DNA from: a virus
Lineage: Duplodnaviria > Caudoviricetes
Strand: one strand, 5' to 3'
Virus record (IMG/VR): IMGVR_UViG_3300021255_000109
Coordinates: 32,001 to 96,000 of that record
Length of the DNA: 64,000 nt
Below, in pieces: positions 1-57,493 of the stretch (position 1 is the stretch's first letter; each line of letters opens with the position of its first letter). The notes beneath the pieces were generated by a model, which ran no database searches, had not been told where the DNA came from, and worked only from the letters and a program-made list of their open reading frames with translations. The position numbers and the translations under genes were made by a program.

Positions 1-741
1 ACACATACCGTTTTGTATATTAGTAATCTTGTAAATACCACCTTGTTTTTTACCAACAACACGACCAATTAAATCATTTACAGGGTTCTCATAATAAATC
101 TTATATATGACTTTATTTAATGTATCTTTATCCCTTAAATAAGGTATAATTTCTTTTAATTTTGCGATTTCTTTTAAATCAGAATCTGAGATCTATATAC
201 GATAGAAATCTATCTTATCAGCTTCTTCAGCAGCACGTTTATTGGCTTCAATTGCCGCACGTTGTTTACTTTTTAAATCATCAATAGAATCAAGTAAAGA
301 TTGTGCGGTTGCCCCATATTTTTGGGCTTCACTAACCATATCAGCCATTACTTGCTTATAATTTTCTGCATATTCCTCTTGCGCTATGCGATATTTCTCT
401 GCTTCTTTTTCTAAGGCAGTTTCTAATGAAGCAGTTGTCGCTGCCATTGTTTTATCAAAATAGTCTTTTGAATAAGATTCAGCATACTCTTGCATATTGC
501 GATTATATTTTTCAAGCGCATCAGCTTCACTTTGTGCTTTTATTTTTCGATCTAGCTCAATCTGACAAGATTTTTCATATTCACTATACTATTTACGAAT
601 TTTATTTAATTTCTATTCTTCTTCTGTAATTAGAATTTGTAATGTTTCAGATTGCGTTTTAAAACCTTTGGCTTTATAACCAAAATAAATAGCAAAACAA
701 ATAACTATAATGATAAAAACTGTTAAAATAAACGGACTCAT
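1..741 (-). CDS. Membrane-anchored coiled-coil protein with C-terminal GIY-YIG-like domain (runs off window; TAG read-through)
   Basis: ATG at 741, N-terminal hydrophobic helix; frame open through in-frame TAGs at 613, 589, 193 to ...GGIYKITNIQNG. Confidence 0.7.
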
Positions 742-813
742 ATTTAAGAATAGGGGTAATCATATCATGATTACCCCATCTCCATTAGTTTTATATCAAC
801 TTATCGGCTTTAA

Positions 814-1083
814 TTAAGCCTCTTCCTCAGCATCTGGGTCATAAGCCATTCCAGCTGGAGTCAGAGAAAGGAACTTAACTGCCTTATGTGTTCCATCTTC
901 AAGCTCGATCTCTGCAGGTGTACGTACGCCAAGACTCTTGCGTTGAATAGCGGATGTAAAGATACCATCAACCTGTCTCTTCTCAAGGCCAAGTGCCTCT
1001 GCAACGTCAGCAGCAGTAACCTGCTCACCGTTAATACCCTTTAAATAATTAAGAACCTTCTTAGAATTTTCCTTCATAGCCAT
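814..1083 (-). CDS. Small winged-HTH DNA-binding protein
   Basis: VTAADVAEALGLEKRQVDG HTH; AAGGAG RBS. Confidence 0.7.
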   Translation of the reverse strand: MAMKENSKKVLNYLKGINGEQVTAADVAEALGLEKRQVDGIFTSAIQRKSLGVRTPAEIELEDGTHKAVKFLSLTPAGMAYDPDAEEEA

Positions 1084-1159
1084 AACTATAAATCTCCTTT
1101 AATAAAAATATTTTTGTTTTTCTTTTGTATAAGTATTATATCAAAATTTTTTGAAAAAA

Positions 1160-1351
1160 TCAAGAGCTTTGTAAAATTTTTTGCACCTCTTCATCTATAA
1201 ACATCATTTCATACATATTGGTGCATAGCTCGCAGAGTTCATTAATCTTACCTTGAGCTTTATATTTTTCATCTTTATCATCTGAATTTTGTAAAATCAA
1301 TTCATATTGTGCTATTTTTTTAGCAACTTTCCTACACTCTCGTTTTGTCAT
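1160..1351 (-). CDS. Hypothetical protein
   Basis: ORF with RBS behind a TTGACA/TATAAT promoter. Confidence 0.55.
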   Translation of the reverse strand: MTKRECRKVAKKIAQYELILQNSDDKDEKYKAQGKINELCELCTNMYEMMFIDEEVQKILQSS

Positions 1352-1396
1352 AAATTTTTGTTCCTTATATTTTACATATATATTATATAAAATTTT

Positions 1397-3424
1397 TTAA
1401 AGTTTGTCAACACATAGTTGCTCAAAGTCATCTTCACTGATTATCACAACACCAAGCTTTTTGGCTGACACACACTTTGAAGATGTTGAATTTGAATCAT
1501 TACAAATTAAATAATTAGTGTTCTTAGACACAGCTGATGTTACTTTACCACCTAATGATTCAATACGTGCTTGCAAAGCCGCACGATTTTTAAAATGATT
1601 AACAGTACCAGTGATTACAAAAGTTAAATTCTGTAATGGGTTTGTAGTTTCTTCTTGTGCGGTTTTCTCAATAATATGAAGGTATTTTGTAGCTAAAATG
1701 TCAGCTTCTGTATAATCAAATCTTAAAATTGCTGCTCTTTTTTCTATACCAAAATCTGGTAATTTAGAAAAATCAAATTTATTATTTACAGCATCTCTAA
1801 ACTCTTGATAAGATTTAAACTGCTTTACTAAATTTTTAGAAACTGTTTTTCCAATTAAAGGAATCCCAAGAGCGCATATAAAATTCTCTAAAGTAACATT
1901 TTTGCTTGTTTCTATTGCGCTTAGTATTTTTTCTACAGACTTATCACCAAAACCATCTTTTTTCTTCCATTCTGTAGCGAAATCTTTTAAATTATAAACA
2001 TCTTCAATATTATTTATCCAGCCCCATTCAATTAATTTTTCAAATGTGGCCTTTGAAACACCTTTAGCATTTAAGCCTTTAATCCCAAAGAAATGGTCCA
2101 ATCTATTAATAAGTTTCCCTTCACAAGCAGGATTTTCGCATATACAAATTTTAACTCCATCATTTTCTTTAATAGAAATGTCCCCACCGCACACTGGACA
2201 CCGCTCAATAACATCATTGGCAGATACTCCGCCATTAGCAATTACATATCCATAGTCGTAATGCGGTCCAGCTTCCGCAATTTGCGGAATAATTTGATTT
2301 GCTTTGTAAACTTTCAAAGGTTCTCCAACATATGCGCAATCACCTAAAAGCTCTCTCATAACACTTACATTATGTAAAGATGCTCGTTCAATTGTGGAAC
2401 CATCTACGTCTATTGGATCAAATACTGCCACAGGAGTTAAAACTCCAGTTCTTCCCATAGTCCACGTGATATATCTCAATCTCGTATCATACAGTTCATC
2501 AAAGAACTTAAATGCAATAGCATTATTAAAATGATGTGCAGTATAACCAAGAGATTCGCGCAAATCAAGATCATTAAACTTAAATACTACTCCATCTATT
2601 GGATAACCAAGTTCTTTAGAATCATTTTTTATATGCTCAATAGCATCTTCAATAGAGACAGGTGATTTGGGATAACTCCAAATCATTGCAGGAGTATTAA
2701 ATCCCCAGTCTTCTACTTTCCCCAATTGACGCATTAAAGTATGAGGATGTTCAATGAAATGCGGCAATTCAATAAATTCTATAACATCCCATGCTACAAA
2801 AGTTAAAAATCTATTGCGGCTTTCATATGAATCAAGAAGCCTAATACTACCTGCGGCAAAATTACGAGGATTTTTAAATTCATCTTTCCAATGTTCAAAC
2901 TCATCATAAGTGCAGATAATTTCTCCATCAATTACAACTCGTTTATCATAAGGAATATGATTTGGTATGGTAATATTAGCTAGTGCATTATGAAGTATAT
3001 CTTCTCCTTCTTCGCCATTACCTCTGGTTTCCGCACGAACTAACTCGCCATTTTCATAAGTAAGAGAGCAAGTTAAACCGTCCATTTTGCCCATTGCTAC
3101 CCACTCTTGATCGCCAAGAAAAGATTTAACGACTTCTATATCTTTAGTTTTATCCAAAGATAGCATAAGATGCTCATGCTTAATTTTATCAAGTTTATCT
3201 TTAACTTCAAATTGTATAGATTGAGTGGGAGAATTAGGAAGAATAGTTCCAGTTTCTCTTTCTAACTGTAAAAGTCGATAATATTTACTATCCCATTTAC
3301 GATCAGAAATTACTGGTTTACCTAAATCATACCAATAGGTAGCTTCATTTAAATAAAGAATGAGATCTTTCATTTCTTCTATTGGATCTAAATATCCTTC
3401 TTTTATAATATTATCAATGTGCAT
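1397..3424 (-). CDS. ligA: NAD-dependent DNA ligase
   Basis: MLSLDK, KMDG, TRGNG..GED, NPRN.AAG, Zn finger, C-terminal BRCT. Confidence 0.97.
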   Translation of the reverse strand: MHIDNIIKEGYLDPIEEMKDLILYLNEATYWYDLGKPVISDRKWDSKYYRLLQLERETGTILPNSPTQSIQFEVKDKLDKIKHEHLMLSLDKTKDIEVVKSFLGDQEWVAMGKMDGLTCSLTYENGELVRAETRGNGEEGEDILHNALANITIPNHIPYDKRVVIDGEIICTYDEFEHWKDEFKNPRNFAAGSIRLLDSYESRNRFLTFVAWDVIEFIELPHFIEHPHTLMRQLGKVEDWGFNTPAMIWSYPKSPVSIEDAIEHIKNDSKELGYPIDGVVFKFNDLDLRESLGYTAHHFNNAIAFKFFDELYDTRLRYITWTMGRTGVLTPVAVFDPIDVDGSTIERASLHNVSVMRELLGDCAYVGEPLKVYKANQIIPQIAEAGPHYDYGYVIANGGVSANDVIERCPVCGGDISIKENDGVKICICENPACEGKLINRLDHFFGIKGLNAKGVSKATFEKLIEWGWINNIEDVYNLKDFATEWKKKDGFGDKSVEKILSAIETSKNVTLENFICALGIPLIGKTVSKNLVKQFKSYQEFRDAVNNKFDFSKLPDFGIEKRAAILRFDYTEADILATKYLHIIEKTAQEETTNPLQNLTFVITGTVNHFKNRAALQARIESLGGKVTSAVSKNTNYLICNDSNSTSSKCVSAKKLGVVIISEDDFEQLCVDKL

Positions 3425-3495: not shown

Positions 3496-3711
3496 TTAAA
3501 GCTCTCTTCCAATATTATGTAACTCAATATATTTATTTATTAACAACTATAATGTAAATCCATTATAATTCTCCGCATCTAATATCGCAGCCATACGAAC
3601 AATTTTCCATGCACTAGTTGGGTTAAAATTAGGTACATATGCATCAAGGATTTTTATAATTTCATTCAAACTATTACAATATGCAATAGGTACTGTTAAT
3701 TCTGTATTCAT
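3496..3711 (-). CDS. Hypothetical protein (one in-frame TAG)
   Basis: ATG overlaps the gyrA stop; open to TAA at 3496 if TAG is read through. Confidence 0.4.
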
Positions 3712-6080
3712 GCCTTTGTTGCAGAAATAATTCTGTTTCCTTTCATCATTATATTACCTTGAGTTGCCCTTCCTAAAAGAGGAATGTCAGCAGCAGAAAT
3801 ACAAATTGAATTTGTATCACCGCAAAGTAAAACTGAATCAGTATCTTCTACCATTATTGCACAAGTTATATAACTACTTCCTTTATAACATTGTACACCG
3901 CGTCCGCCTCTGCCTTGTACAATTGTGTCTTTTGGACCTATTTTCTTACCATATCCATCAGCAGTAAACAATGCTAAAGAATCATTCATCTCTCTGATTG
4001 GTAATGCTGCCACAACATAATCGCCTTCTGTAAGATTAATACCTTTTACTCCAATAGTCATACGAGAAGAAGCAGAAATATCAGATGATTTAATTCGTAA
4101 TACATAACCTTTATGTGTTACAATCATAAGTTGTGCATCTGCATCAATCAACGTTACTGCGGCCAATGAATCACCTTCGCGCAAACTAATTGCGCCAATA
4201 CCAGTTTTCTTTTTTGTATTAATATATTCATTAAGATTTGTTTTCTTAACTATACCATTTTTAGTTACAAATAATACAAAATTGTCAGCTGTATCTCTGT
4301 ATATAGAATAAATAATTGCAGGCTCTTCACCAATTTCCATAGCTATTAAAGCCCTAATAGAGGTTCCTTTTCCGGCATTAGTGCTTTCAGGAATATCATT
4401 TACCAAGAGTCTATACATACGGCCTTGATTAGTAAATACCATTAATTGATCTATTGTATTTGTTCTAATTACCGCAGAAGTAATATCCTCTTGAGATTTG
4501 ATACCTTTTCCATTTCTCTTCTGCGTGCGGAAAGAGGTTGTTGGAATTCTCTTGATAGTACCTCCTTCTGTCATTACAACTACACACTTCTCAGGCTCGA
4601 CAAATTCAATTTCTTTTTCTTCTTTTGTAATTGCAACTTGAGTAATTTTTGTGCGACGTTCATCACCATATTTATTTTTTAATTCATTAAATAAACGAAT
4701 CATCTCAGGGTCAGGATTCGCAATAATTGATTTTAAATGCTCAGATTCTTTAATTTTGTCAGCTTGTTCATTTTCGATTTCAACTCTTTCAAGGTTAGCT
4801 AATTTACTTAACTTCATATCAAGAATTGCTTTTGCCTGGACTTCTGCAAAATTATATTTTTGCATTAATGCAATTTTTGCGCTTGCTGCACTATCTGAAG
4901 ACTTAATTAATTTAATAATGTTGTCAATATTTTCTAATGCTTTTAAAAGCCCATCAAGAATAAATATTCTTGCTTCAACCTTTTTTAAATCATATTCAGT
5001 GCCACGAATTAATACATCTCTTTGATGTGCAAGATATATATCAATTAACTGCTTTAAATTTAATAATTTTGGAGTTTTCCCATGCAATGCAACTTGATTA
5101 AAACTATAAGTCGTTTCAAGAGATGTTAATTTAAACAGTTTCGCAATAATTGGCTCAACTGCAACGCCTCTTTCAAGCTCGATGACAAATCTAACCCCCA
5201 ATGAATTGGATTCGTCCCTAATAGCTGAGATGCCGCTGAGTTCGCCACTTTCACACTTCTGGTCAATATCAACGATAAGATTTTCTTTTGATACCTTGTA
5301 TGGAATTGATGTAAATACAATCGAATCTCTACCAGCTTTAGTTTCAATTTCATATTCTCCTCTAATTCGTGCGCGACCCTTACCCGTGAGATACGCAGTC
5401 GCTAATTCATCTTTATTAATTACTAATCCGCCCGTCGGAAAATCTGGGCCTTTTACAAACTGTAATAATTCTTTACATTCACATTTTGGATTCTGTACTG
5501 TATAAATAATTGCATCCATCATTTCATTTAAATTATGAGGTGCAAAACTACATGCCATTGCTACTGCAATTCCAGAAGTGCCATTAATCAACAAATTAGG
5601 AACAAGGCCAGGAAGATATACTGGCTCTTGCTCTTCATCTGTGTAAGCATTTATCCAATCAACTGTATCTTTTTTAATGTTTGCAAGAGTTTCCTCTGCT
5701 AATTTTGATAATTTACATTCACTATAACGATAAGCGGCAGGTTCATCACCATCGCGGCTACCATTATTTCCATGAAAATCTATCAATGGATATCTCATAT
5801 TCCAAGGTTGAGATAACCACACTAAAGCGCCATAGATTGAGCTATCACCGTGCGGATGGAATCTACCCATTGTATCTCCCACTGGCTGCGCGCACTTAAC
5901 AAACTTCTTATTATTGAAGTAACCTTTATCATACATATCGTATAATATTCTTCGTGCTACCGGCTTTAATCCGTCTTCTGCGCTTGGAATTGCTCTATCT
6001 GTAATTACGCTAACGCTATAATCAAGAAAACTCTGTTCAACTTCATTTACTATTGGTGTTAATATAATATTTTCACTCAT
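3708..6080 (-). CDS. gyrA: Type II topoisomerase subunit A (GyrA/ParC)
   Basis: DGLKPVARR, FHPHGDSSIY, AAYRYSE, GPDFPTGG, beta-pinwheel CTD with QKRNGKG box. Confidence 0.95.
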   Translation of the reverse strand: MSENIILTPIVNEVEQSFLDYSVSVITDRAIPSAEDGLKPVARRILYDMYDKGYFNNKKFVKCAQPVGDTMGRFHPHGDSSIYGALVWLSQPWNMRYPLIDFHGNNGSRDGDEPAAYRYSECKLSKLAEETLANIKKDTVDWINAYTDEEQEPVYLPGLVPNLLINGTSGIAVAMACSFAPHNLNEMMDAIIYTVQNPKCECKELLQFVKGPDFPTGGLVINKDELATAYLTGKGRARIRGEYEIETKAGRDSIVFTSIPYKVSKENLIVDIDQKCESGELSGISAIRDESNSLGVRFVIELERGVAVEPIIAKLFKLTSLETTYSFNQVALHGKTPKLLNLKQLIDIYLAHQRDVLIRGTEYDLKKVEARIFILDGLLKALENIDNIIKLIKSSDSAASAKIALMQKYNFAEVQAKAILDMKLSKLANLERVEIENEQADKIKESEHLKSIIANPDPEMIRLFNELKNKYGDERRTKITQVAITKEEKEIEFVEPEKCVVVMTEGGTIKRIPTTSFRTQKRNGKGIKSQEDITSAVIRTNTIDQLMVFTNQGRMYRLLVNDIPESTNAGKGTSIRALIAMEIGEEPAIIYSIYRDTADNFVLFVTKNGIVKKTNLNEYINTKKKTGIGAISLREGDSLAAVTLIDADAQLMIVTHKGYVLRIKSSDISASSRMTIGVKGINLTEGDYVVAALPIREMNDSLALFTADGYGKKIGPKDTIVQGRGGRGVQCYKGSSYITCAIMVEDTDSVLLCGDTNSICISAADIPLLGRATQGNIMMKGNRIISATKA

Positions 6081-6531: not shown

Positions 6532-6902
6532 TTTAAATCGTCTCCATCAATACGATCTAATTCATTTTTAAGAACTTTAATATACTCTTCTCTGCCGATA
6601 CATCGTTCTATAGCATTAAACATTTCTGTCGTAAATTGTTTAGAATTATAAGCAATTAAAGACGCAGCGTCCGGAACAGTTACCACACTTACTTCATCTG
6701 GCATTACTTCAGTTAAACATCTATGCATGTCTGCGGCTTGCTCAATATTAATTTCGTTAAAATTAAGATAAGCTACTACAATATCTCCAGGCTGTGGATG
6801 GAGAATACTTATATTTGAGTAATCTTCTTTTATTTTTGTAGCTTCTATATTTTTAGTTCTCTCAAAAGCCTCTTTTAATTCATTATAACTAAGATTAGAC
6901 AT
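6528..6902 (-). CDS. Hypothetical protein
   Basis: ORF overlapping both neighbours in the operon. Confidence 0.6.
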   Translation of the reverse strand: MSNLSYNELKEAFERTKNIEATKIKEDYSNISILHPQPGDIVVAYLNFNEINIEQAADMHRCLTEVMPDEVSVVTVPDAASLIAYNSKQFTTEMFNAIERCIGREEYIKVLKNELDRIDGDDLK

Positions 6903-8826
6903 CTATATTGGCCCTCCAAGCATTTTCTTCAATAAACTTCTTACGTGGAGTTACACTTTCTCCCATAAGTTCAGTAAAAATTCGTGCCACGTCTGCAACA
7001 TCATCCATAGTAATACGCTTTAAAATTCTAGTTCCTGGGTTCATTACGGTTTCAGCCATTTCATCAGGATCCATTTCGCCTAATCCTTTCATTCGTCCTA
7101 ATTCGAAACTTCTTGACATAGTTTTTCGAAAAGCGGCTAATTCAGCGTCGTCTTTGAGATACTTAAATTTAGTTCCATAGGTTGCTTTATAAAGCGGCGG
7201 TACTGCTGCATAGATGTATCCTTTTTCAATAAGTTCTGGAGCGAATCTCCAAATGAATGTAAGGAAGAGGATACGGATGTGACTTCCATCGACGTCTGCA
7301 TCAGCTGTAATAATAATTTTTCCATAGCGCAATTTGCTTTCATCCACGATGATCTTTCCATCTTTAACCTCCAAACCAAAAGCATCAATCATTGCACTGA
7401 TTTCTGCATTTTGCATTGCTTTATGTAAATCTGTTTTTAATACGTTAAGAATTTTTCCTCTAACTGGCAAGACCGCTTGAGTGCCACGATCGCGAGCTTC
7501 TTTAGTTGAGCCTGCAGCAGATTTACCCTCAACAATAAATACTTCACATTTACTACGGTCTTTTGAACTAGCATCAGCGAGCGTACCAGGTAAAACCGCA
7601 CGTTTCTTAGTATCCTGTTTGCGAACTGTCTCCTTAGCTTTTTTCGCTTTTTCTCTTGCCGCACGCGCTAATAGGGCCTTATCAATGATTGTTTTCGCAT
7701 CCTTAGGATGAGTATCAAACCATTCTTTTAATGAATTAGAAGTTAATCGTTGAACCGCTGTTCTCGCTTCACTACTGGAAAGTATATCTTTAGTTTGTCC
7801 AGAAAATACAGGATCTGGCATAATAAAACTTAAAACTAAAGTTAATCCTTCTTTCAATTCATCACCAGTGATATTCGCATCTTTTTCTTTTAAAAGTTTA
7901 TTTTCACGAGCATATGCATTAATCTGTTGAGTTAATGCTGTTCTAAAACCAGTTAAATGTGTACCACTAGAATTAGGAATAGAATTAGTATATAACTTAT
8001 AAGTATCTGTATAAGAATCATTATAAGTCATAGCTAATTTAACACCAATTTTATTTTCAAGATTCTCAGCATAAAATACAGAAGTTAAAACATTCTTATT
8101 CTTATTTAAATCTTCGATATAATCAAGAATACCATTCTGAGAAGCGATATCTTCAGATGGTTTATCTTTATATTTTAAATGAAAAACTAAACCAGGAGAT
8201 AAATAAGCTAGTTCCTGCAAAATTTTCTTTAAACTAGCATAATCAACTTCAATACCCTCTTTGAAAATCTCTTCGTCAGGCATAAATTGAATCCTTGTTC
8301 CATGTTGATAATCATTTGTTGCTGGCCAGTCTCTAGTAATAACTTCACCAGAAAGCTGACCTTTTTGAAAACAAGCGATACAATTTTTACCATTTCTTAC
8401 AGAAGAAACATTAAAATAATATGAAAGAGCATTAGTAGCTTTTGCGCCAACGCCATTCATACCACCTGAAGTATTATATCCAGTTTTTCCATCGCTATCA
8501 AATTTTGCACCAGTATGTAATTTAGTAAAAATATTAACTAAAGTCTCACTTCCATCTTCTGCTGGTCCAAATGGAATTCCACGACCATTATCAATAATGT
8601 CGAAATCATTATCTTCACCAACAATAATTGAACAACTTGTGCAATAACCATTTAAATATTCATCAACAGCGTTAGAGATAATCTCTAAAACAATTTGTCG
8701 AACACCTTCTGGTCCAGTTGATCCGATGTACATACCTGGGCGCAATCTAATAGCTTCAATACCTTCAAGAGTCTTAATGTCTTTTACGCCATAATTCTCT
8801 ATAATCTCATTTATTTTTGTTGCCAT
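6895..8826 (-). CDS. gyrB: Type II topoisomerase subunit B (GyrB/ParE)
   Basis: IRLRPGMYIG, DNGRGIP, LHTGAKF, VEGKSA, ADADVDGSHI, KGLGEM. Confidence 0.95.
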   Translation of the reverse strand: MATKINEIIENYGVKDIKTLEGIEAIRLRPGMYIGSTGPEGVRQIVLEIISNAVDEYLNGYCTSCSIIVGEDNDFDIIDNGRGIPFGPAEDGSETLVNIFTKLHTGAKFDSDGKTGYNTSGGMNGVGAKATNALSYYFNVSSVRNGKNCIACFQKGQLSGEVITRDWPATNDYQHGTRIQFMPDEEIFKEGIEVDYASLKKILQELAYLSPGLVFHLKYKDKPSEDIASQNGILDYIEDLNKNKNVLTSVFYAENLENKIGVKLAMTYNDSYTDTYKLYTNSIPNSSGTHLTGFRTALTQQINAYARENKLLKEKDANITGDELKEGLTLVLSFIMPDPVFSGQTKDILSSSEARTAVQRLTSNSLKEWFDTHPKDAKTIIDKALLARAAREKAKKAKETVRKQDTKKRAVLPGTLADASSKDRSKCEVFIVEGKSAAGSTKEARDRGTQAVLPVRGKILNVLKTDLHKAMQNAEISAMIDAFGLEVKDGKIIVDESKLRYGKIIITADADVDGSHIRILFLTFIWRFAPELIEKGYIYAAVPPLYKATYGTKFKYLKDDAELAAFRKTMSRSFELGRMKGLGEMDPDEMAETVMNPGTRILKRITMDDVADVARIFTELMGESVTPRKKFIEENAWRANIDV

Positions 8827-9111: not shown

Positions 9112-9492
9112 TTAACCGCTAGGTTGTTGTTCGTCGCAAGTAGTATTATTTAGCTATTGTTCTTTCATTTTTAAAGCTAAATCAAATTTCTGCTGTTCTT
9201 GGTTTAGCGTTTGTTCAAGCTCTGTTATCACAGATTCATATTTGATACCATCTTTAGTATTCTCTTTCATTGCTTTTCTATAATAAAAAGCTTGACTGAC
9301 TGCATACGCAGTCCAAGGCAAGCCTACCATAGCTGTAAGCCATGGTAATTCACCAATATAAGAATTTTTAACGCATATAAAAGCTAATACAATAAATGAA
9401 ATAGTAATAATCCATATTAATGCTGACTCTTGACGTAATAAAGCTTTAGAAAATTCTTGTTTATTAGTTTTTGAAGAGTTTTCTTTCTTCAT
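9112..9492 (-). CDS. Putative holin (2 TM helices; TAG at 9154 read through to TAA)
   Basis: Two hydrophobic helices; last gene of the lysis cassette, followed by a hairpin terminator at ~9081-9105. Confidence 0.65.
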
Positions 9493-9495: not shown

Positions 9496-10587
9496 TTACA
9501 CCTTCTTTACATATTTTAATGAGATATAACCAATACCAGATTTTAATTCGCCCCAATTATTATTCTTTTCGCCAATAATTGTATACTGTTCACCTTTATG
9601 AATAATTGCAACAACAGGGCTATTAGTCGTTGGCTCTTTTCTTACATTAAGCGCATATGCGGTAACTTCAACTGCATATGGGAATTTATTTTGAGGTTGA
9701 GTGCCTTCTTTTGCAATTCGTCCTTCTTTTTTACCATAAACAACCCAATGTTGTAAAAGCGCCATAACATTATCTCCAAAAGCAGCTTTTAAATCAGCAT
9801 ACTTATTTGCATAAAAGACTGGATCAAATTCATTTGTATAATCTTTGCCGCCATAAATATATGAAGGCGCTTTAGCTGTACGTTTTTCGTTTTTACCATA
9901 TTTTACCCAATGATATAATAGCATTGCAGCATCATTACCAAAAGCAGCTTTTAAATCCGGATATTTATTAGCATAATACTCTGGATCAAATTCATCATCA
10001 TATGGTACGCCTTCAAATACATATCTATAATTGTTTAAATTACTTGCCTCTGGGCCGTCATCTAAAACTACAACTGTATGACCAGAAGAACGAGTAACTA
10101 AAATATCACCTTTCAGCACTTTATTAGGGCTATCAGTCATATCATGCTTTGCAATCAATTCAAATTTACCACTTGCAGGTAAAATTACTGGCATATTAGA
10201 AGTATAAAAATCTCCAAGCATAATACCTGCATATGCGCAGCATAGTCTTACAAGAGCAGAACAATCTACATTTACATCTGCTGTAATAGTAGCTGGATCG
10301 TAATTTTCATTATTGTGCCATTTACACCAATCTTGTGCGGTCCAGCGATTGCTCTAACTATATCCAATATGCTTATTATTACATGCAGCCTCCATTGCAT
10401 ATGCAATTTTTTGGCGTGCTTTAGGGTCTTTAGCACGTAAAATATACCATCCTTTTGGATGCATATACCAAGGCTCCATAGATACTTCACCGCTCATATC
10501 AGGAACTGAAGTTTGTCTTTGATCGCCCTCTAATCCATTTACAAGTTTTCTATTTTCATCACTTCTTGCAGAACCGACTCTTACCAT
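9496..10587 (-). CDS. Endolysin: NlpC/P60-like cysteine amidase/peptidase, two ~50-aa repeats, C-terminal SH3b (in-frame TAG at 10354)
   Basis: Fused frame HIGYS*SNR...DCSALV...GHT; repeats FDPEYYANKYPDLKAAFG; ALNVRKEP...WGELKSG. Confidence 0.85.
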
Positions 10588-12337
10588 ATCATTCCTCCTC
10601 CTTTATTTTTTGTGTCCATTTTAATAAAATCCATCCTTCGCCGCCGCTTAATTTACCCCATCCATTTTGTTCATCAACAATAGTATAAACATCATCCTAA
10701 GCAACTACCATTGTTATTGTAGATTCAAGATTAGGCTATTCGCGCACATTAAGTAAAGATGTATTAATACGAACTTTATAATTAATTACTTCAGCTATTG
10801 GTAGAATAAACTCTTTCGCAACTTCACCAATAATGTCTCCATTGCGTGTAGTTGAAAATACAATAGTCTTTTCTTTAATATCACGTACATATAGAGTAGA
10901 TTTAAAGATCCAACCTGGAATTATTCTATCATCTGTATATTTAGCTCCATTAATAAGTTTAAATGTATCACCAATTTTCATATTATCATATATAGAAACA
11001 GTTCTCTGAGATACTGTTGCAATATATTGATCTGTTGGTTTTAATACTAATAATAATTTTTCGGTAGCTTCTCTTATATCATTCATATTCGTATCATGTT
11101 TATTAAACCAATGATAAACATCTGCGCAATTAGAAGCCAATCCATATTTATAAGCATCTTGATGACATAAAATAGTTGGTACGACATACTTATCATAATT
11201 AGTCATATTAATAGGGTTAAAATGGAATTTAGCGCATAAATATGCTAAAACATGAATAAGTTCCTAATAAATCATAGTGAAATACATTTTATTATTTAAT
11301 AGACCTTCACAAATTTGTATTTGTATATAACGATCATTTGCTGTACCATGTGAGCCAGCGCCACACTCAATACCCTAAATATCCCAAGGTAATGTTTGAA
11401 TTGCTTCAATTTTATCATTTGCAACTTTACCAATCCAAATATGCGCTCCGCCCATAACTTCGCTGTGATTCCAGTCATTACCATAGCTATTGTACCCTAA
11501 TAAAGAAATTAATTCTTCATAGTTTTCATCATTAGCACTTGGCTATACAAAGCGTTTTAAATATGGGCTATTAATACCAGTGCTATGAATTATTATACCT
11601 ATTGGATTATTTAATGGTTTATTCATCTTATAGCATGTGCTATTAGTCATAATACATTGAGTTGGACCATTATCTAATGTATATTTAGGTTCTTCATATA
11701 CATCCATAAGCGTTTTAGGATTAACTTGATGTAATGTAGAGCTAAAAGTAGTTGGTTCTATGATTGTAATATTAGAAATCTATTCTAATCCTAAATCTTG
11801 GATAGGATCTATTTCTAACTCATCCGTGATTTGTTCTTCAAAGAGTTCATAATATTGTGCGCACATAAATGCACGTATTTCAAGAGTATCTTCTGATTCT
11901 TCGGTTAGATTCTTATAATTTTCTACTATTGCATCAGAAGCCTCACGTATATTATCAGTATGTTTAAGCACGCGCCATACTCCGGCATAATATTCTCTTT
12001 GTAATTGTCTACAAAGAAATTCTAATTGTGTTTCAAAATCTCCAATAGATTGACCTTTATTATGCGCATATGCTAATAATTTTTCTTTATCTTCTGGTTT
12101 TTGCCATTGCATTAATCCAAAAGCTACGTTATCATTAACAAAGTCTGTATATGTTCCATCGTCAATGGCTTGTATATATTCTTCTTCTGATAAAGTTGGA
12201 TGTTGTGACGTAGTGGGAATTAAATCACTATCTATGAATATGTTGCCCACGAGTCCAGCAGTACCATAAGAATTTTTAGTTTTTCTTATGATAAAATTCC
12301 AAGCTTTTTCAGCATTTGTCTTTCCTACTAAACTCAA
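10559..12337 (-). CDS. Multidomain cell-wall hydrolase: phage tail lysozyme-like + Amidase_2 + SH3b (6 in-frame TAGs)
   Basis: One frame open via TAGs at 11780, 11543, 11375, 11264, 10736, 10697; AFGLMQW, IIHSTG..PYLKRFV*P, QTLPW, ILCHQD, LLNVRE*P. Confidence 0.85.
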
Positions 12338-16308: not shown

Positions 16309-16319
16309 TTTAGTCCTCC

Positions 16320-17504: not shown

Positions 17505-17517
17505 TTTATTCGCCTCC

Positions 17518-22164: not shown

Positions 22165-22166
22165 AT

Positions 22167-44075: not shown

Positions 44076-45413
44076 TTAATTATCATATCCAGCAATAAAC
44101 TCCGCATTACCAATAGATGGATTAAAAGTTTTATTTACTAAATCATAAAATCCTGCTTTTTTATCAGTATTGCGTACCACTGGAATATAATATCTAATTA
44201 ATTCATTCTGTTTTTTAATTTTAAAATAATAAAATTTATGGCTTGGTGCGCTAGTATCACCAACACCAGAACCAACACGATTTTTTCCAATTGTAATATT
44301 TAATGCACTCATTTCAGATTCATCTGTTGCAGTAGTAGCAGTGTGTGATTCACCATTATAAGTTGCAGTTGCGCTACCATATTCCATATGTATATCTACT
44401 GGTGCATTAATAAGATGACCTAAACCACCAGCATTTAAGCCTGCACTAGCACCAGCTCGTCTATTATTTAATGTTATCGTATAACGACCATTATCAGAAC
44501 TTCCATGAATAAGTCTCCAACAAGCTTTTGATTCGCCATCATAATTAGCAAAAACATAAGCATATTTTTTATATTCTACTGGTTGTACACGTAAATCAAT
44601 TTGAATTGTAACATCATTACCAGCTACGCCAGTATCAATAAACGATGCTGTACCAACTGTTTGAATATAATCACAGAGTGAATAACCAATTAAATCAGTA
44701 TAAGTCCAATATGTTAAAGATAAATCAATTGCACTAGCACTACTAATAGTATTATTACCACGAACAGTTTTTAATTGTTCTGGTGTTAAAGTATAATAAA
44801 CTGGTGTTGCTGTCGTATCAATAAACTCAATAGGATTAGCATTAAGATAAACTCCTATAGATTCTTTAGTATCACCAACTAAATCAGTTGAAAGTCTTTG
44901 TACAGTTGATTTAGGATAATTCTCGTTTACACGTATACCATTTAAAGTAGCATCAAGAAAAGGCTCTGGATGCAAATAATTACAACATTTAATAGCATTA
45001 TGAGCTAATGAAGTATCTCTATCATCGCCATCCCACCAAAGCCAAAACTAAGTATAACCATTATTAGTTGCAATTGATGTAATACGTGATGTAACATCTT
45101 CTGGCTACGTTCTTAATATATATGGACAAATTAACTATCCAGTTGCTAAGTCAAGACTTCCGCCATAAATTAATGTAGGAAACTAAGTAACTATATTAGT
45201 ATTATTAAAAATTGTAGTAATTTGATTCCAGCCTGAAAAAGTTCTTACATTATCTGGACTTGCTTCTCCAGAACCATGCCATATAGGATCAAAATTAATT
45301 ATACAATGTTTAACTTTTGCGACCAAATCAGCATCAAAACTCATTGATGTATTATAATTAATAGTTCTTAAATGGGGAGTATTTAACAATATCTATCTGC
45401 GTATTAATTCCAT
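44076..45413 (-). CDS. Tail fibre/receptor-binding-like protein (5 in-frame TAGs)
   Basis: TAGs at 45393, 45183, 45135, 45105, 45048; C-terminal YI...G..FIDTG...PV.R....G.YDLV domain. Confidence 0.75.
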
Positions 45414-45415
45414 AT

Positions 45416-47029
45416 TTAAACTACCCATGACATCACCGCCCCATATACTCCATTTAAAATAGAAATTTCATAAGTCCTATTAGTTTCAATTTCAAACCAT
45501 TCTGGCATTTTTACTGTATTTGGCAAAGTTAATACAGTAGGAGTAGAACCAGAAGTAAACAATATGTTACAAATACCAGTAGCAGATGGAGTAAAAGATA
45601 ATGTTAATACTGTGCCACAAATATAACGGTAGTTTCCTTGTGCGGTAATTACTGGATCTGTGCCTGTAACTGTCTATTCAGTTATTCCGCTACCACTTGA
45701 TGATGATCCACTATTAACCATCTAATCTACATATCCTTTAGTAGCAACATCCATATTATTAGTAGGTCCAATACCAACAGTTAATTTACCTGCTAATACT
45801 TCATTACCATTCCAATCTAAAGTTCTTGCATTAGAACGATTTATAATAGTATTATCTTGCGGATCTTGTATTCCATTACCAACAATTTCAATATAAGTTC
45901 CTTTATTATTCGCCTCTGCTGTTGTAGCATTTGTTTCTATTACATTATATTCTCCAAAAACAAACTAAGAGCGTTTTGCCGCTTCAGTTCCATAGCCTTG
46001 ACTATGAGAAAATCTTCCGCTAGCAACAGTTTGAATACCTTCAGCATGTGCGCCAAGACCTGTAGCTTGACTTTGGCCTCCTTCTGCATGCGTATAATAA
46101 CCACTAGCAATAGTATATACCCCTTCTGCGTGTGCAGATTGACCACTCGCTGTTGTATGTTCTCCTTCTGCATGAGATGCTAAACCGCTAGCTTCAGAAT
46201 AATCACCTTCTGCATGAGATGCTGCGCCACTTGCTGTTGTCTAATAACCACTTGTAAATGAATTTTCTCCTTCTGCAATAGTTAATTCTCCAATCGCAAT
46301 AGCTCCATATTCTCTTGCGACATTATTAAGTCCAATAGCTATTGCATTATCTTCAGAAACTGTATTACCTTCACCAATAGCAACAGTAGCTACTCTTGAT
46401 TCTAATTTATTCGCCACACCAATAGAATAGCCAAAATATTTGCTTGTTTCACCATCTCTAGCTATTTGTAAAGGAGTATCTGTATATCCATATATTAAAG
46501 ATTTTGGCAATTCAACTTTTGTATTATTTATCTATTCTACTAAAAACTTATATGTGCCAGCTTCACTTGTTAAAATATCAAGCGTTCCATCATCATCTGT
46601 CTCAACAATTATAAATGGACAATTATCAGTTTTATATGGTATACTAGCGTCAATGTCAATATATAGATTTAAGTTCCCTAAATAAGAATATAATCGCGTT
46701 GAACACCATGTCTTACCATCTAAAATATACTGTTGTGATTCATTCGTTGTAGCATTAGTAAATGTGACTCGAAATTGATAATAGGTTGGCCTTTGAGTTT
46801 TAGTAACAGTTGCTTTTGGACTTTTATATCCTTCTGTTACCGCAGTTGTTACTGTAAATTCTCCTCCATAAACTGTAGTATATGTACTATTAATAATACC
46901 TGCATTACCTATTGCGCTTTTATCAACTTTTATATTATCAATAATATTTACAGCAGTTTCTAAAGTATCCAACTAATCTTTTTTTAATCGAGTTATACCA
47001 TTTGCATCTAAAAATTTTTTAGTTGGCAT
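45416..47029 (-). CDS. Fibre/adhesin-like protein with SHAEG beta-roll repeats (at least 6 in-frame TAGs)
   Basis: MPTKKFLDANG; (S/A)HAEG..T.ASG repeats; S*FVFGEYN; IVGNG...RSNARTLDW. Confidence 0.82.
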
Positions 47030-47238
47030 AAAACACATTTCCTCCTTTTTGTCATATAAAAAAGAGAGGATAATTTCCTCTCTTCAAAATCAAATTGAGT
47101 GCTTTTGGCGGGAGCAGTCTCGTTTGCGCTACGACACCCAGTATTCATACTTTCCGCTTCGCTTCTCACGGAGTTATGAATCCATATGGCAGAACTTCTA
47201 CTGCACTCCCCAAAAACACTCAATTTTTCACTAACTAA

Positions 47239-47452: not shown

Positions 47453-48295
47453 TTATTCATGGCCCCAAGCTGTACGCCCATCACCCCAATAGACTAAATA
47501 AGTTGGAAGATAAGCTAAACCCCAACCAGGAATTTCTAAATTATAGCTTACAAATATATCTATGCATCCAGATGGTACTCCGCGATCGCGCACTTCAAAT
47601 TCACCTAATCCTTCAACATATAAATGTGTACCAAAAGGAATATCATATCCTGCAGCGCATGTAACCCAAGGAATAGACCCAAAGCCATTTGCAGATCCTG
47701 AATTGTGCATTTGTTCCGCGCTATAAAAAGTTACTCTAAAATTACCTAAGTATTGTCGTGCGGGAGCAACTGGTGCGGGTGGAGGAGCTGCCTCAACTGT
47801 TACTGGAACAGGGGGTGGAGCGATCTCAGAAGCGGGCACCGCACTCTCTGTAACAACAATAATTTCTTCTTCCAATTCTATTACTTCTATTGGATTTTCT
47901 GGCTCGGCAGATGTTAAATAGCTATCCCATACAAAAAATTTTTCTAAACCAATGGCTATAATATCCCATCCACAAGATTTACCTACTACTCTTACTTTTG
48001 TATCTCTCAATAAATAATTCCATCTATTACTGTCAGTAGATGGAATAGTTCTTACATTTAACACGTCACAATTGACATACATTATTTCATTAACTTTTAT
48101 ACAACTAAATATAATTTGATTCTCTGGATTATGGACTCTATAACTTGCATCTTCTTCTGTGATAGTTACATATTCCACTGTATATTTAGTACGAATTTCT
48201 TGTAGTCGGTCATCCTAATTAGGCTAAGCAACTACAACAATAGAAAATGACATAATTAAACAAATGAGGATACTAATTATTCGTTTAAATTTCAT
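47453..48295 (-). CDS. Secreted SH3b + 3D-domain cell-wall protein (TAGs at 48224, 48215)
   Basis: Signal peptide upstream of the TAGs; LNVR..P; F.VT.Y, IPFGT.LY.EG, DRG, IDIF. Confidence 0.8.
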
Positions 48296-48321
48296 AATTA
48301 TACTCCTTTATTTTAATTCAA

Positions 48322-48412
48322 TACGCGCTCTGGGACTCGAACCCAGCTTAACAACCTTGCTAGGGCCTACTGCTTATAAGGCAGGGGCTCTCACCGAATG
48401 AGCTAAGCGCGC
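48322..48412 (-). tRNA. tRNA-Ile(TAT) with long variable region
   Basis: Cloverleaf; loop CTTATAA; A73. Confidence 0.8.
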
Positions 48413-48425
48413 ATATAAATGGGGC

Positions 48426-51150: not shown

Positions 51151-51957
51151 TTAACTATTTTCTTCTGTCTTTAAATAGTCTAAATATGACTAGACTTTTT
51201 GCCTATTTGCAAGAAATAGAGCATGATCGCATAAATGGCAGCCCGCACTCAGCGGAAATTCTTCACAATGCTGGCGGCAATTTAAGCGGCTTTTACCAAG
51301 ATCGGGGATAATTAAATCATTAGCTATCTATTGTCCTTTAACTTCAAGGAATAGAAAACCTAAATCTCCGTCCCATTTTCCATCTTTTGCATATACACGC
51401 CAAAATGCTTCTTCAGCTCGTGCATTTACTGTGTTTTGAAATTCAACAATAGCATTAGGGATTATATCATATTCTTTTATATCTTCTGGGCGAATCCATG
51501 TACCATGCGCAAAGGTCGTTAGATAGCCAGGTGACGCATCAATCACATTCGGCAACAAGCGCACAGGAATATTAAATCGTTTGATCTTATCCATAGAAAA
51601 AAATAGAGGAGCATCTAAATATACACATGGTACTCCTGCGCTATATAATCTATTTAACTCCATAAAATTGTTTATTGGCTTTAATAAATATGCTTTTACA
51701 CTAAAGTTTTCAGCTTCATGAATCTATTGGAATTTCATCACTCCTACTGTAAATCCATGTTGAAATTGTTTAGATAAAGCTGCAAGCCATTTCCAATCTA
51801 TAAATTCTTCTTGATTGTAACATTGAATTGTAACTGCCGCATTTGGATATTTACTTGGATAATCTAAAATGCGTTCACGCTATTCATATGATACAATAAT
51901 TTCATCTGCTTTTTCTAAATATTCAGATGAACAATTTGAATGTAAAGCGTATCTCAT
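51151..51957 (-). CDS. U32-peptidase-like/TIM-barrel hypothetical protein (in-frame TAGs)
   Basis: Frame open from ATG 51957 through TAGs; WIRPED..Y, RLNCRQ.C...CHLC. Confidence 0.6.
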
Positions 51958-52059
51958 ATTCATTACCTCCTATATAAAGGATACTATATTTTTTAATATT
52001 TGTCAACCCAAAAATGCCAGAAGCCGTAGCTCCTGGCATTTTTAATAACTCATGGTGCA

Positions 52060-55380: not shown

Positions 55381-55535
55381 ACCGTACCACCTTTCTTTAA
55401 TTTGAATTTCTTTTTCATTTTCTATAAATATTATAGCAAAATTTTTTCCAAAAATCAATTGCGGCCTTTTGGCGCCCACAGGTTGACTTTTATACAAGAA
55501 AATGATATAATATTTATTAGAAAGGAGTGTTGATT

Positions 55536-56105
55536 ATGTTAATTGAATCAATTCTTGCGGGTTTTGTTGTATCTTTTGGTGCAATAGCATATTTGTTTAT
55601 TGATGATATGCTGATTAGTTCTATTTGTATTGGATTAGTATTGATGAGTATAGTTTATTACGATCTGGATCTTTTTACTGGGCATGGTGGTCTTTTAACA
55701 TCACAACGAGAAACGGTTATAGAGGGTATAATTATTTTTGTTGGGAATAATATTGGTGTTATGTGGATTGCTTTATTATTAAAATTAGCGCCAGAATATA
55801 ATGGCTAGTTAGTTAGCCGTGCCGTCGAGATAACTATGCAACGTGGTTAGTATAGCTGGACCACTAATTTCATAATGGGACTTTTCGGCGGAATGATATT
55901 ATATGCTGGCGCTATTGGTTATCGAAAAACTGGTATATATATGATGTCATTACTTGCCGCAGTATTGTGCGTTATGAGCGATTATTAGTTTTTTTTAACT
56001 GATACATTTTTTTATTGGATTGCCGATTGGCAATATGGTTACATGATTATTCCAACATTAATTGGAAATATTATTGGAAGTAATGTATTTCCTTGGCTAC
56101 GATAG
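55536..56105 (+). CDS. Formate/nitrite-transporter-like membrane protein (in-frame TAGs; 3' end uncertain)
   Basis: SILAG, LFTG, GNNIG, GNIIG and several TM helices across the TAGs; own TTGACT/TATAAT promoter. Confidence 0.65.
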
Positions 56106-56130
56106 CGTTCGCCTCGATATCATCAAGAAA

Positions 56131-56499
56131 TTAAAGTCCCTTTAGATGAAAATGAGCGCATCCTGTAGCAATTTGCCTCTGACATTCAAAATCTGTACCA
56201 AAAGAACACTGACACTTCTGACACGTCTCACGAACACGGTCGGGATTCTTCACCTGAGCGATAAATTGCATATTTCCGTTACGGATAGTTTTTGTTACAG
56301 TTTTTGGAGTAGGTGACGGGTCGGTTTCAAAATAGCAATAGACATCAACACCGTAAAGACAAGTCGCGCAAGTTCCTGCGGCGTTTGCACATGCGGGGCA
56401 CATGAGTTGGATTTTGTCTTCCTCTTGTGTTATCACAATCCCTCGCGGAACCGGCTGACCGCATATGTCGCAGTAATTTACTATATTAGTAATAGACAT
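56131..56499 (-). CDS. Cys-rich Zn-binding hypothetical protein
   Basis: Multiple CxxC. Confidence 0.6.
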   Translation of the reverse strand: MSITNIVNYCDICGQPVPRGIVITQEEDKIQLMCPACANAAGTCATCLYGVDVYCYFETDPSPTPKTVTKTIRNGNMQFIAQVKNPDRVRETCQKCQCSFGTDFECQRQIATGCAHFHLKGL

Positions 56500-56754
56500 T
56501 TAATCCTCCTCGCTATAAGGGTCATTATGAAGAAGTGCATTAGCTAGCTTTTCGGAGATTGTAAGACAGGTCTCGCCGCACCCATCAGAAATTTCTTCAA
56601 TCTGGAGATTGATAATGTTGTCTCTGCCATATGCGTTGATTACGTTTGTAATGGCTGTTTCAAAGGATTCTGCTGCTGTTAGTTCATGTGCAGTTTTTTC
56701 ATTAAAATCACTGTCAGAAATATAGGTTACGCGCACAACATACAATTTTATCAT
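56500..56754 (-). CDS. Hypothetical protein
   Basis: ORF with RBS behind promoter. Confidence 0.6.
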   Translation of the reverse strand: MIKLYVVRVTYISDSDFNEKTAHELTAAESFETAITNVINAYGRDNIINLQIEEISDGCGETCLTISEKLANALLHNDPYSEED

Positions 56755-56890
56755 GGATTATATCTCCTTTCCTATTTTCTATAATAATTATAGCAAAATT
56801 TTTGGAAAAAATCAAAGATGTTAAAAGAAAGGTCAATAATTGTTAATAGTATTATTGGGATTTTTAGAGTAATGTGGGAGGTACAAAGAC

Positions 56891-57493
56891 ATGGAAATCG
56901 AAAAGAATTCTCGACAAATCCCAAGTAAATAGGAGATTTGTAGTGATAAAATGTATAGTGATATAGTATATGGTTGGTTTCAAGATATGTCGGAAAAAGA
57001 TTCTGAAGGGATACGTTATGTGAATGAGAAAGATGTTAATTATTCTAAAATTGGAGATAGAATTGGTTTAAGCAGGCAGACAGTGTCTAAAAGGATTAAG
57101 AATTTAGAAGACATGGGACTGATTTATAAAAATGATTTGAAAAAGCGATATGAAATTCATATTTTGTCTAATGTAGATGCTTCATTGATCCCAAAGCGCA
57201 CTTTAAGTTTTTTGATTGATAGTTAGAGTGAAAATGGTATTTCTATTTATGTTTATTTATTGAATAGATATTGGGCTAATTAGGAATAGCCTTTTTCATT
57301 TACTATTGGTTAGGTAAAGAGTTTTTTAGGTATTAGTGTAAAAACTACGAGTAATAATCATTGTATTACTAATCCTTTAATTTCTTTGGCAAATAATGGA
57401 TTAATTGATTATGAAATTAAAGAAGAAGGCGGAGGCATTAAAACAGCTTATTATATTAAGAGTATGAGTTTTAATGTTAAAAATTTGAATTAA
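56891..57493 (+). CDS. Winged-HTH protein, possible replication initiator (in-frame TAGs)
   Basis: GGAGG RBS; SKIGDRIGLSRQTVSKRIKNLEDMGLI; second HTH-like half after read-through. Confidence 0.7.

Follow-up and report, generated by a model that had tools for sequence, protein, structure and literature searches.

The stretch of DNA analysed here (the window; 64,000 nt) comprises bases 32001–96000 of a single 180,778-bp contig, IMG/VR virus record IMGVR_UViG_3300021255_000109. The features of interest are the TAG codons that lie in frame within many of its genes and one transfer RNA (tRNA) with a CUA anticodon, tRNA(CUA), located at 29228–29316 on the minus strand. The contig has a GC content of 35 %, contains no N and carries a 107-bp terminal overlap; the record is rated 100 % complete, with direct terminal repeats. 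The window is part of a complete tailed phage genome of ~180.7 kb. PHROG and Pfam scans of this genome identified a portal, virion structural proteins, a tape measure of 3923 aa and giant fibre and tail proteins, together with Pol III alpha, a DnaB-like helicase, a primase, RecJ-like, Sak4-like and Dda-like proteins, a split NrdD, ligase, gyrase and two sigma-type factors. The genome's 33 tRNA genes and its transfer-messenger RNA (tmRNA) all fall within the window, on the minus strand (ARAGORN, Rfam).

Two clusters of minus-strand genes in the window carry in-frame TAGs that a sequence-only reading had pointed out. The first is a lysis cassette. A cell-wall hydrolase with Phage_lysozyme2, Amidase_2 and SH3_3 domains has six TAGs, at codons 186, 265, 321, 358, 534 and 547; the count is as predicted, but the open reading frame (ORF) spans 10589–12337 rather than 10559–12337. 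An endolysin-like protein (ELLD and SH3_3 domains; 9496–10587) has one TAG at codon 78, in the context GYS*SNR, and directly downstream of it a small hydrophobic protein (9112–9492) has one at codon 113. The latter gives only a weak DUF2207_C match and is a possible holin, because hydrophobic stretches are seen in its translation. The second cluster is a fibre pair at the edge of the tRNA array, namely a fibre protein with YadA_head repeats (45416–47038) and a second fibre-like protein that matches no family (44076–45428), with six and five TAGs respectively, in line with the predicted ‘at least 6 and 5’.

Genes free of TAG are interspersed with these. On the same strand, the lysis cassette sits between GyrB (6895–8826) and a PIN-PhoH protein (12391–13647), the latter directly beside the TAG-bearing genes. 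The NAD-dependent DNA ligase LigA (1397–3424, minus strand), a group made up of an RNA ligase, an RNase_T exonuclease and a sigma-70 factor (18145–21218, minus strand; CAA/CAG 0/10, 2/6 and 0/10) and a DUF2828/DUF7788 protein (25021–26577, minus strand; no CAA, 10 CAG) likewise have none. The gyrA frame does contain TAGs at codons 4, 8 and 12, yet these are upstream of Met23, of the start of homology (residue 18) and of the GyrA domain (from residue 51); the gyrA gene proper, taken from Met23 (3708–6080, minus strand), is thus TAG-free. The predicted absence of TAG from ligA, gyrB, RNA ligase, sigma, PhoH and DUF2828 was borne out, and that from gyrA was borne out for the gene proper.

ORF density was calculated with a greedy procedure under code 11 and with each stop codon in turn read as sense, at cut-offs of at least 60 aa and at least 150 aa. 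For the whole genome and ORFs of at least 60 aa, density was 0.704 under code 11, 0.906 with TAG as sense, 0.747 with TGA as sense and 0.840 with TAA as sense; for ORFs of at least 150 aa the corresponding values were 0.41, 0.75, 0.44 and 0.56. ORFs of 3923 aa (71 TAG) and 2533 aa (48 TAG) contain no TAA or TGA. Pfam domains run directly over the TAGs: in the hydrolase, Amidase_2 (residues 244–393) covers TAGs 265, 321 and 358 and SH3_3 (529–571) covers TAGs 534 and 547; ELLD (4–180) covers TAG 78 of the endolysin-like protein; and Metallophos (9–231) covers TAG 24 of a metallophosphoesterase (21277–22164, minus strand). PHROG domains likewise extend across TAGs. Recoding in this genome is specific to TAG. 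About 20 plausible genes in the window need read-through to be intact, close to the 18 or so first estimated, and the suspicion that a standard-code ORF track fragments these genes proved correct. For annotation the consequence is that code 11 loses about one-fifth of the genome's coding sequence, with lysis, fibre, portal and tape-measure genes shredded.

Relatives were collected from IMG/VR with the portal gene, for which at least 88 were found; 80, at 43–74 % identity, were retained and constitute the 80 related loci. Two relatives were taken whole, one TAG-recoded (G002; ORF density 0.46 under code 11 and 0.81 with TAG as sense) and one of standard code (G004; density 0.82 under code 11). 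Every ORF of 80 aa or more was translated with TAG as X and the residue opposite each X was tallied in the relatives, with the best high-scoring segment pair per cell. Over 76 TAG columns and 2785 cells from the 80 loci, the residues were Q 40.9 %, TAG 19.1 %, K 10.5 %, E 7.0 %, D 4.5 %, T 3.7 %, S 3.0 %, L 2.1 % and Y 0.3 %. Opposite the phage's own Q codons, the same loci have Q in 40.8 % of cells, a nearly identical figure, and TAG in 7.7 %; opposite its K, E, S, L and Y codons TAG is found in less than 1 %. Q formed the majority in 26 of the 42 columns covered by 20 residues or more, E and K in 4 each, S and D in 2 each, and G, N, L and C in one each; 12 of these 42 columns were at least 90 % Q. 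With an empirical likelihood derived from the same alignments, Q was best both over all cells and per column, the runner-up, H, being 53 log units lower (per-column normalised); because the sequences are related, this likelihood is a ranking and not a p-value. In the two whole relatives, Q was the top residue at TAG columns of G004 (52/189), and in G002 Q and TAG were found in 23 and 22 of 133. The proposed alignment of TAG columns to homologues thus returned enrichment for a single residue, and TAG as a glutamine codon is well supported by these comparisons.

The sequence contexts that had been quoted as pointing to glutamine are all present on the minus strand: GYS*SNR at 10345–10365, KRFV*P at 11540–11557, DP*I at 37320–37331, YH*VL at 43926–43940 and S*FVFGEYN at 45944–45970. 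Three of them fall on near-invariant Q columns, as predicted. Hydrolase column 265 (KRFV*P) is Q in 120/120 homologues, ELLD column 78 (GYS*SNR) is Q in 106/113 aligned homologues and fibre column 358 (S*FVFGEYN) is Q in 97/120. An IMG/VR pattern search with the hydrolase gave no match, and homologues were found by protein search instead. The other five TAG columns of the hydrolase align to a gap, R/K, K/N, G and R/K/D, and the other five of the fibre protein are variable. In the metallophosphoesterase the GDIHG motif is located at 22111–22125 (minus strand) with the TAG six codons downstream, as had been noticed, and the column is V or K in the two relatives G002 and G004. Not every TAG is therefore placed on a conserved Q by these alignments.

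TAG density is high in genes for the virion, fibres, lysis and homing endonucleases; most genes of replication and transcription have few TAGs or none. Within the window, the lysis and fibre genes have 18 TAG to 49 CAA+CAG, and the seven genes named as TAG-free in the sequence-only reading have 0 to 90 (Fisher p = 5e-8). Genome-wide, the bulk of the TAGs is in the virion module, a plus-strand block of 37 ORFs of at least 100 aa with 289 TAG, 599 CAA and 151 CAG; TAG occurs in 33 of these ORFs. The corresponding numbers for eleven replication and recombination genes are 15 TAG, 133 CAA and 50 CAG (15 TAG vs 183 CAA+CAG, compared with 289 vs 750 in the virion block; Fisher p = 4e-11), and the density per 1000 codons is 11.7 TAG in the virion block vs 2.4 in the replication genes. 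Two GIY-YIG homing-endonuclease ORFs also carry TAGs. The enrichment in late genes is real, but it is not exclusive.

The tRNA(CUA) is the sole component of a code change encoded by the phage and the only suppressor in the genome (89 nt; ARAGORN; Rfam tRNA, 55.2 bits). It has A1·C72, G2:C71, G3:C70, G4:C69, G73 and the anticodon loop CUCUAAA, and is located 5 nt from a tRNA-Ser(UGA). In its acceptor stem and D arm it is similar to the tRNA-Gln genes of this phage, G002 and G004, including the normal-length tRNA-Gln(UUG) at 32530–32604 (minus strand), and unlike the tRNA-Ser. The elements of a tRNA-Gln-type amber suppressor that it displays are CUA, a weak 1–72 pair, G2:C71, G3:C70 and G73; the class I shape, with a variable loop of 4–5 nt, is not found, the variable arm being 20 nt long. 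G002 has a 94-nt CUA tRNA of the same build. In a consensus fold of five such CUA tRNAs the cloverleaf is kept, with compensatory change in 14/23 pairs; G2:C71 is invariant in 5/5 relatives, and the discriminator among 41 long CUA tRNAs is G in 30 and A in 11. A DNA search with the tRNA region in five relatives gave only two matches of 29–35 nt, so the tRNA arrays are not alignable at the DNA level. One metatranscriptome contig, from a study other than the probable source, matches 29218–30002 with no differences or gaps and includes the suppressor with its arm, the tRNA-Ser, an ORF and a tRNA-Gly, although a contig is no evidence of transcription, RNA ends or processing, and such libraries may contain DNA.

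Glutamine identity for GlnRS is reported to reside in U35, G36, pairs 1–72 and 3–70 and the discriminator, and Escherichia coli CUA suppressors with a weakened 1–72 pair and G73 insert glutamine (PMC9976931). The combination seen here, CUA with U35, weak 1–72, G2:C71, G3:C70 and G73, is shared with E. coli supE, su7 tRNA-Trp(CUA) and acceptor mutants of amber tRNA-Ser and tRNA-Asn, and it is through these elements that GlnRS accepts a suppressor (PMC9976931). Since an amber tRNA-Ser was made glutamine-accepting by two acceptor-pair changes (PMC9976931), a long-armed CUA tRNA charged with glutamine has a precedent. These E. coli suppressors differ from the present one: they are cellular tRNAs mutated in the laboratory, and they have no additional arm resembling an anticodon arm (PMC9976931). 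Given the glutamine identity of the TAG columns, the phage tRNA(CUA) is probably charged with glutamine.

What singles the phage out is the architecture of this suppressor. Its 20-nt variable arm has a GCC/GGC stem and a 7-nt loop, UUCUGAG, which places U at ‘33’, CUG at ‘34–36’ and A at ‘37’, as in a glutamine anticodon loop. A first IMG/VR pattern in which the arm was left free (N{10,40}) returned 11 CUA tRNAs, of which seven were long, and 7/7 of the long ones have YTGAR 12 nt before the T-arm. A wider pattern with YTGAR imposed, which cannot test conservation of the loop, returned 69 CUA tRNAs of 85–94 nt, 60 of them distinct (80 loci kept of 99 stretches). The unbiased survey used the pattern CTCTAAA-N{25,35}-GGTTCGAATCC; from 105 stretches 80 loci were kept, ARAGORN found a CUA tRNA in 54, and covariance-model alignment left 42 distinct long CUA tRNAs, the window's own counted. 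For comparison, a normal-length CUA pattern is found in at least 117 IMG/VR stretches, vs 105 for the long pattern.

A hairpin of at least 2 bp enclosing a 7-nt loop with YUG at loop positions 3–5 is present in 37 of the 42, whereas 1000 shuffles of the arms gave a mean of 2.7/42 and a maximum of 10/42; the remaining five are without the motif. Across the 37 hairpins the loop reads C 18, U 14, G 5 at position 32; U 28, G 5, C 3, A 1 at 33; C 32, U 5 at 34; U 37 at 35; G 37 at 36; A 35, C 2 at 37; and A 20, G 11, C 6 at 38. The closing pairs of the arm vary (CG, GC, TA and AT), i.e. the stem covaries, and loop positions 35–36 are invariant. In one copy the stem is 5 bp long and the loop is CUCUGAC, as in these phages' tRNA-Gln(CUG) genes. 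Because the loop is conserved, the stem covaries and one copy has the tRNA-Gln(CUG) loop, the extra arm looks like a second, usually shortened, anticodon arm of tRNA-Gln kept under selection. Pairing of the arm loop with the D loop was considered and rejected: UCAG can be seen by eye in the D region of this tRNA, but other sequences have other letters there. No paper describing such an arm in phage suppressors was found in a literature search that excluded subscription journals and bioRxiv supplements, and the phage-recoding papers in which these terms were counted contain 0 occurrences of ‘long variable’ or ‘variable arm’.

Apart from this tRNA the phage appears to rely on its host. Six-frame searches of the genome gave no RF-1 domain (PF00472) and no class Ic synthetase core (PF00749), and Pfam and PHROG scans of the ORFs gave no synthetase, amidotransferase or release factor. 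A PCRF match (PF03462; 8.3 bits, E = 0.17) is inside the coiled-coil tape measure and was rejected as a release factor. The search of the rest of the genome for a release factor or GlnRS that the sequence-only reading had proposed was thus negative, with no release factor and no glutamine or glutamate synthetase encoded. Since none of these enzymes is encoded by the phage, the tRNA(CUA) is presumably loaded by the host's glutamine pathway.

As to which host this may be, the YTGAR-imposed pattern gave 40 stretches in 185,579 species genomes, with a long CUA tRNA in only seven loci. All seven are on contigs of metagenome-assembled genomes (MAGs) titled Bacillota, Bacilli, Mollicutes, Erysipelotrichaceae or Eubacteriales; two of these contigs are ~162 kb and are probably binned phage genomes. 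One MAG contig (L348; 161,537 bp) has an 89-nt spare-arm tRNA(CUA) and a 73-nt normal tRNA(CUA) within the same 342-bp stretch. Of five such MAGs, one has GlnRS above the cut-off and no GatB and four have GatB and no GlnRS, the binning of phage contigs being unreliable. If the binning is right, most hosts would make Gln-tRNA by the GluRS/GatCAB route, for which the anticodon is reported as a main determinant and U1–A72 as important for the amidotransferase (PMC9976931).

The best explanation of these data, to which we assign a probability of roughly 0.85, is that TAG serves as a glutamine codon in this phage, a distant relative of the phAss-1 ‘code 15’ group that infects Bacillota of the gut or rumen, and that it is decoded by the phage's own tRNA(CUA), derived from a tRNA-Gln, with TAGs dense in late genes. 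In operation, TAG would be decoded by the single tRNA(CUA), itself apparently of tRNA-Gln descent and presumably loaded by the host's glutamine pathway. TAG-bearing proteins would then not be completed until the suppressor has accumulated, and lysis and assembly proteins would thereby be held back early in infection. The role of the bias as a ‘lysis-timing switch’ is a suggestion taken from the literature (10.1101/2021.08.26.457843).

Several observations weigh against parts of this explanation. In the window alone, ORF density with TAG as sense (0.861) is no better than with TAA as sense (0.863; code 11, 0.756); window-only density was therefore dropped as a code test, and the comparison of code 11 with code 15 that had been proposed is decisive only for the whole genome. 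At many single TAG columns the aligned residue is K, E, D, G or S and not Q, and because of this the glutamine call is carried by the aggregate and by the conserved columns. The claim that TAG is concentrated in lysis and fibre genes and absent from core replication genes stood within the window but did not extend to the genome, in which RecJ-like (8 TAG), Sak4-like (4) and RuvC-like (5) genes carry it and Dda-like, NrdD and dUTPase genes have one each. The RecJ-like and Sak4-like TAGs are inside alignments that span the whole proteins, with Q in at least one of G002 and G004 at 5/8 and 3/4 columns, respectively. Conversely, among the virion-block genes of 200 aa or longer, two (235 and 655 aa) have no TAG. 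With such genes on both sides, there is no clean early/late split. The long variable arm and G73 of the tRNA(CUA) are also features of tRNA-Ser. Finally, four of the five MAGs lack GlnRS and have GatB, so the precedent set by E. coli GlnRS may not hold for the true host.

The alternative that survives best accepts glutamine as the meaning of TAG but gives the bias no regulatory role, the distribution arising instead from CAG to TAG mutation together with weaker selection, or from the age or composition of gene blocks. Composition does vary. A TAG-free set of genes of higher GC content at third codon positions (GC3 0.33–0.59 vs a genome median of 0.24) uses only CAG for glutamine; it is located at 18145–21218, 25021–26577 and 61222–64000 of the window and at 93–103 kb of the genome, and includes the RNA ligase, sigma and DUF2828 genes, which points to compositional or ancestral differences between blocks. 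The TAG-rich genes use CAA and TAG with little CAG, and the TAG fraction drops as GC3 rises (Spearman -0.26, p = 0.009); the presence of TAG in several replication genes also fits. The CAG-only set could mark a separate expression class or a foreign origin. Block composition is harder to reconcile with the lysis genes, which have 6, 1 and 1 TAGs and are flanked on the same strand by gyrB and PhoH, both free of TAG, and Borges et al. report the same bias in several unrelated recoded phage clades (10.1101/2021.08.26.457843). On balance we regard a bias without regulatory role as unlikely, though it is a serious contender.

Two TAG-bearing genes outside the window stand out. A gene assigned to a PHROG ‘sigma factor’ family (phrog_5767, E = 1e-51; no Pfam match) heads the virion block (L003:16910–17989, plus strand; genome 112910–113989) and has three TAGs, at two of which the relatives' columns are dominated by Q (Q 36, TAG 10; Q 48, TAG 8). 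Late transcription could itself be dependent on suppression. In Pol III alpha (L002:96–3956, minus strand; genome 16896–20756) the sole TAG is the penultimate codon, followed by one codon and TAA. Penultimate-codon TAGs in Pol III alpha, capsid and other genes were compared with G002 and G004, and the Pol III alpha of G004 ends at about the same place; the TAG of Pol III alpha might be a stop early and be read through late.

That TAG is read as serine, or as leucine or tyrosine, is suggested by the tRNA and contradicted by the proteins. The suppressor has 89 nt, a 20-nt variable arm like class II tRNAs and G73 like tRNA-Ser, next to a tRNA-Ser(UGA). Yet S, L and Y make up only 3.0 %, 2.1 % and 0.3 % of the cells at TAG columns, the likelihood of S is 74 log units below that of Q (per-column normalised), the three conserved columns are 81–100 % Q, the acceptor stem and D arm match tRNA-Gln and not the neighbouring tRNA-Ser, and the variable arm has a stem of 3 bp and a loop of 7 nt. 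A class II suppressor of tRNA-Ser type (supD-like) was rejected on the residues at the TAG columns, and a reading other than glutamine is most improbable. It is equally hard to believe that the host reads TAG as glutamine and the phage only follows it, since the phage has its own tRNA(CUA) and leaves many genes TAG-free, and the close relative G004 uses the standard code. Decay or assembly error, with a dead prophage or chimeric contig and no code change, would account for the many genes that look fragmented under code 11, but can practically be dismissed, because TAG alone interrupts frames and TAA and TGA never do, even over 3923 codons, relatives have TAG at the same columns in 19 % of cells, and the contig is rated complete, with terminal overlap, and has its own tRNA(CUA).

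With glutamine decoding by the phage's own tRNA(CUA) as the preferred explanation, recoding itself is an ordinary case, correctly called, of a known phenomenon and matters mainly for annotation. What deserves attention is how the code change is enforced with one tRNA and neither synthetase nor release factor, and that tRNAs of this family, with their conserved spare hairpin bearing a glutamine anticodon, recur among large phages of gut and rumen. It is conceivable, and we propose it only tentatively, that the hairpin is a functional stand-in for the glutamine anticodon arm: CUA would read UAG on the ribosome, and the Y-U-C/U-U-G-A-R hairpin, with CUG or UUG between U33 and A37, would let the host's glutamine-loading machinery, or a glutamine-specific anticodon-loop enzyme, treat the molecule as tRNA-Gln. 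The machinery would be GlnRS or, in most candidate hosts, a non-discriminating GluRS with GatCAB. Decoding and identity would be kept apart in such a natural ‘two-headed’ tRNA, which would account for the ability of phages to impose TAG as glutamine on hosts without carrying a synthetase. Against this, GlnRS and GluRS approach the tRNA from the side away from the variable region, so it is not evident that the loop can be read directly in the usual complex. Alternatively, the arm may be what has been kept of a duplicated anticodon arm, or may serve another partner. Glutamine charging of stop-reading tRNAs was named as an open question by Borges et al. (10.1101/2021.08.26.457843). The question is sharpest in Bacillota without GlnRS, and the spare-arm tRNA family is a direct handle on it that could also inform the design of orthogonal suppressor tRNAs.

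Other unusual tRNAs are present in these genomes. A tRNA-Ile(UAU) at 48321–48413 of the window (minus strand; 93 nt) has a long variable arm and is drawn with 8 bp in its acceptor stem, and a tRNA-Cys(GCA) at 26970–27053 (minus strand; 84 nt) has an extra arm; G004 has an 86-nt tRNA-Cys. By eye, the arms of the long tRNA-Ile(UAU) and tRNA-Cys(GCA) do not display their own anticodons. G004 (L107, contig bases 123974–124046) also has a 73-nt tRNA with the anticodon UUA, an ochre-type suppressor, and shows no visible TAA recoding.

The phage is a further member of a described kind, the stop-codon-recoded gut phages, and its late-gene bias matches the known pattern that the sequence-only reading had invoked. 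In the code-15 gut phages as described by Borges et al. (10.1101/2021.08.26.457843), structural and lysis genes are recoded by in-frame TAG and replication genes variably so, as here. Those phages also share with the present one a phage-encoded tRNA(CUA), usually without a phage synthetase, low-GC genomes and, for some clades, proposed Bacillota hosts; a release factor is lacking in the present genome and in most of theirs. The second, glutamine-anticodon hairpin of the present suppressor differs from those phages as described. Proteomic proof of TAG to glutamine has been given for crAss-like phages by Peters et al. (PMC9523058).

The closest named relative is phAss-1 (GenBank OQ749652, ‘Caudoviricetes code 15 clade’; PMC10607447), with a portal identity of 36 %, followed by large siphoviruses of Enterococcus, Brevibacillus, Bacillus and Clostridioides. 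Both phAss-1 and the present phage are large siphovirus-like gut phages with DNA polymerase III alpha, a big tRNA array and TAG to glutamine in TerL, portal and tape-measure genes (PMC10607447). Tape measures are very long in both, at 3149–3209 aa in the phAss-1 group vs 3923 aa here, and genome sizes are 133–138 kb vs 181 kb (PMC10607447). phAss-1 is reported to have three CUA tRNAs (PMC10607447); one was found on scanning record bases 90000–135976, and it is of normal length, 74–77 nt vs 89 nt here. Phassvirus, the group proposed by Babkin et al. in 2023, has 80–86 % nucleotide identity among its members (PMC10607447). High nucleotide identity and synteny with phAss-1 were not found for the present phage, and since its portal protein is only 36 % identical it is not in the phAss-1 genus. 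Its portal places it as a distant relative of phAss-1 within a wider group of large Bacillota siphoviruses.

Additional TAG-bearing genes in the window include a secreted SH3-domain protein (47453–48295, minus strand; two TAGs, codons 24 and 27), a conserved protein with no assigned function (51151–51963, minus strand; four TAGs, column 80 being Q in G002) and a winged-helix DNA-binding protein (56891–57493, plus strand; five TAGs). A formate/nitrite-transporter-like membrane protein (55527–56264, plus strand) has five TAGs; this channel scores 36.3 bits in Pfam vs a cut-off of 34.6 and is on the strand opposite its neighbours. Positions 1–741 (minus strand) are the 5′ part of a 323-aa ORF (genome 31770–32741) that ends in a GIY-YIG nuclease domain, with three TAGs in the window and four in total; its column 310 is Q in G004. 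A further GIY-YIG homing-endonuclease ORF, with two TAGs, splits the anaerobic ribonucleotide reductase NrdD into two ORFs (L001:13148–16335, minus strand).

Within the tRNA array, a full-length ROOL RNA (RF03087; 341 bits vs a gathering score of 99) is located at 31691–32315 (minus strand) and adjoins the phage tmRNA (30707–31008, minus strand; tag ARYQYQMAA). An abiF RNA motif between tRNA genes (40317–40353, minus strand; 39.1 bits vs a threshold of 37) may be a chance match. Positions 14568–22764 (minus strand) encode domains of three metallophosphoesterases, an AAA_33 kinase, an RNA ligase, an RNase_T exonuclease and a cREC_REC ‘cyclic-phosphate processing’ protein. By its domains this cluster looks like an RNA/tRNA repair kit, which would fit a phage that leans heavily on its own tRNAs.

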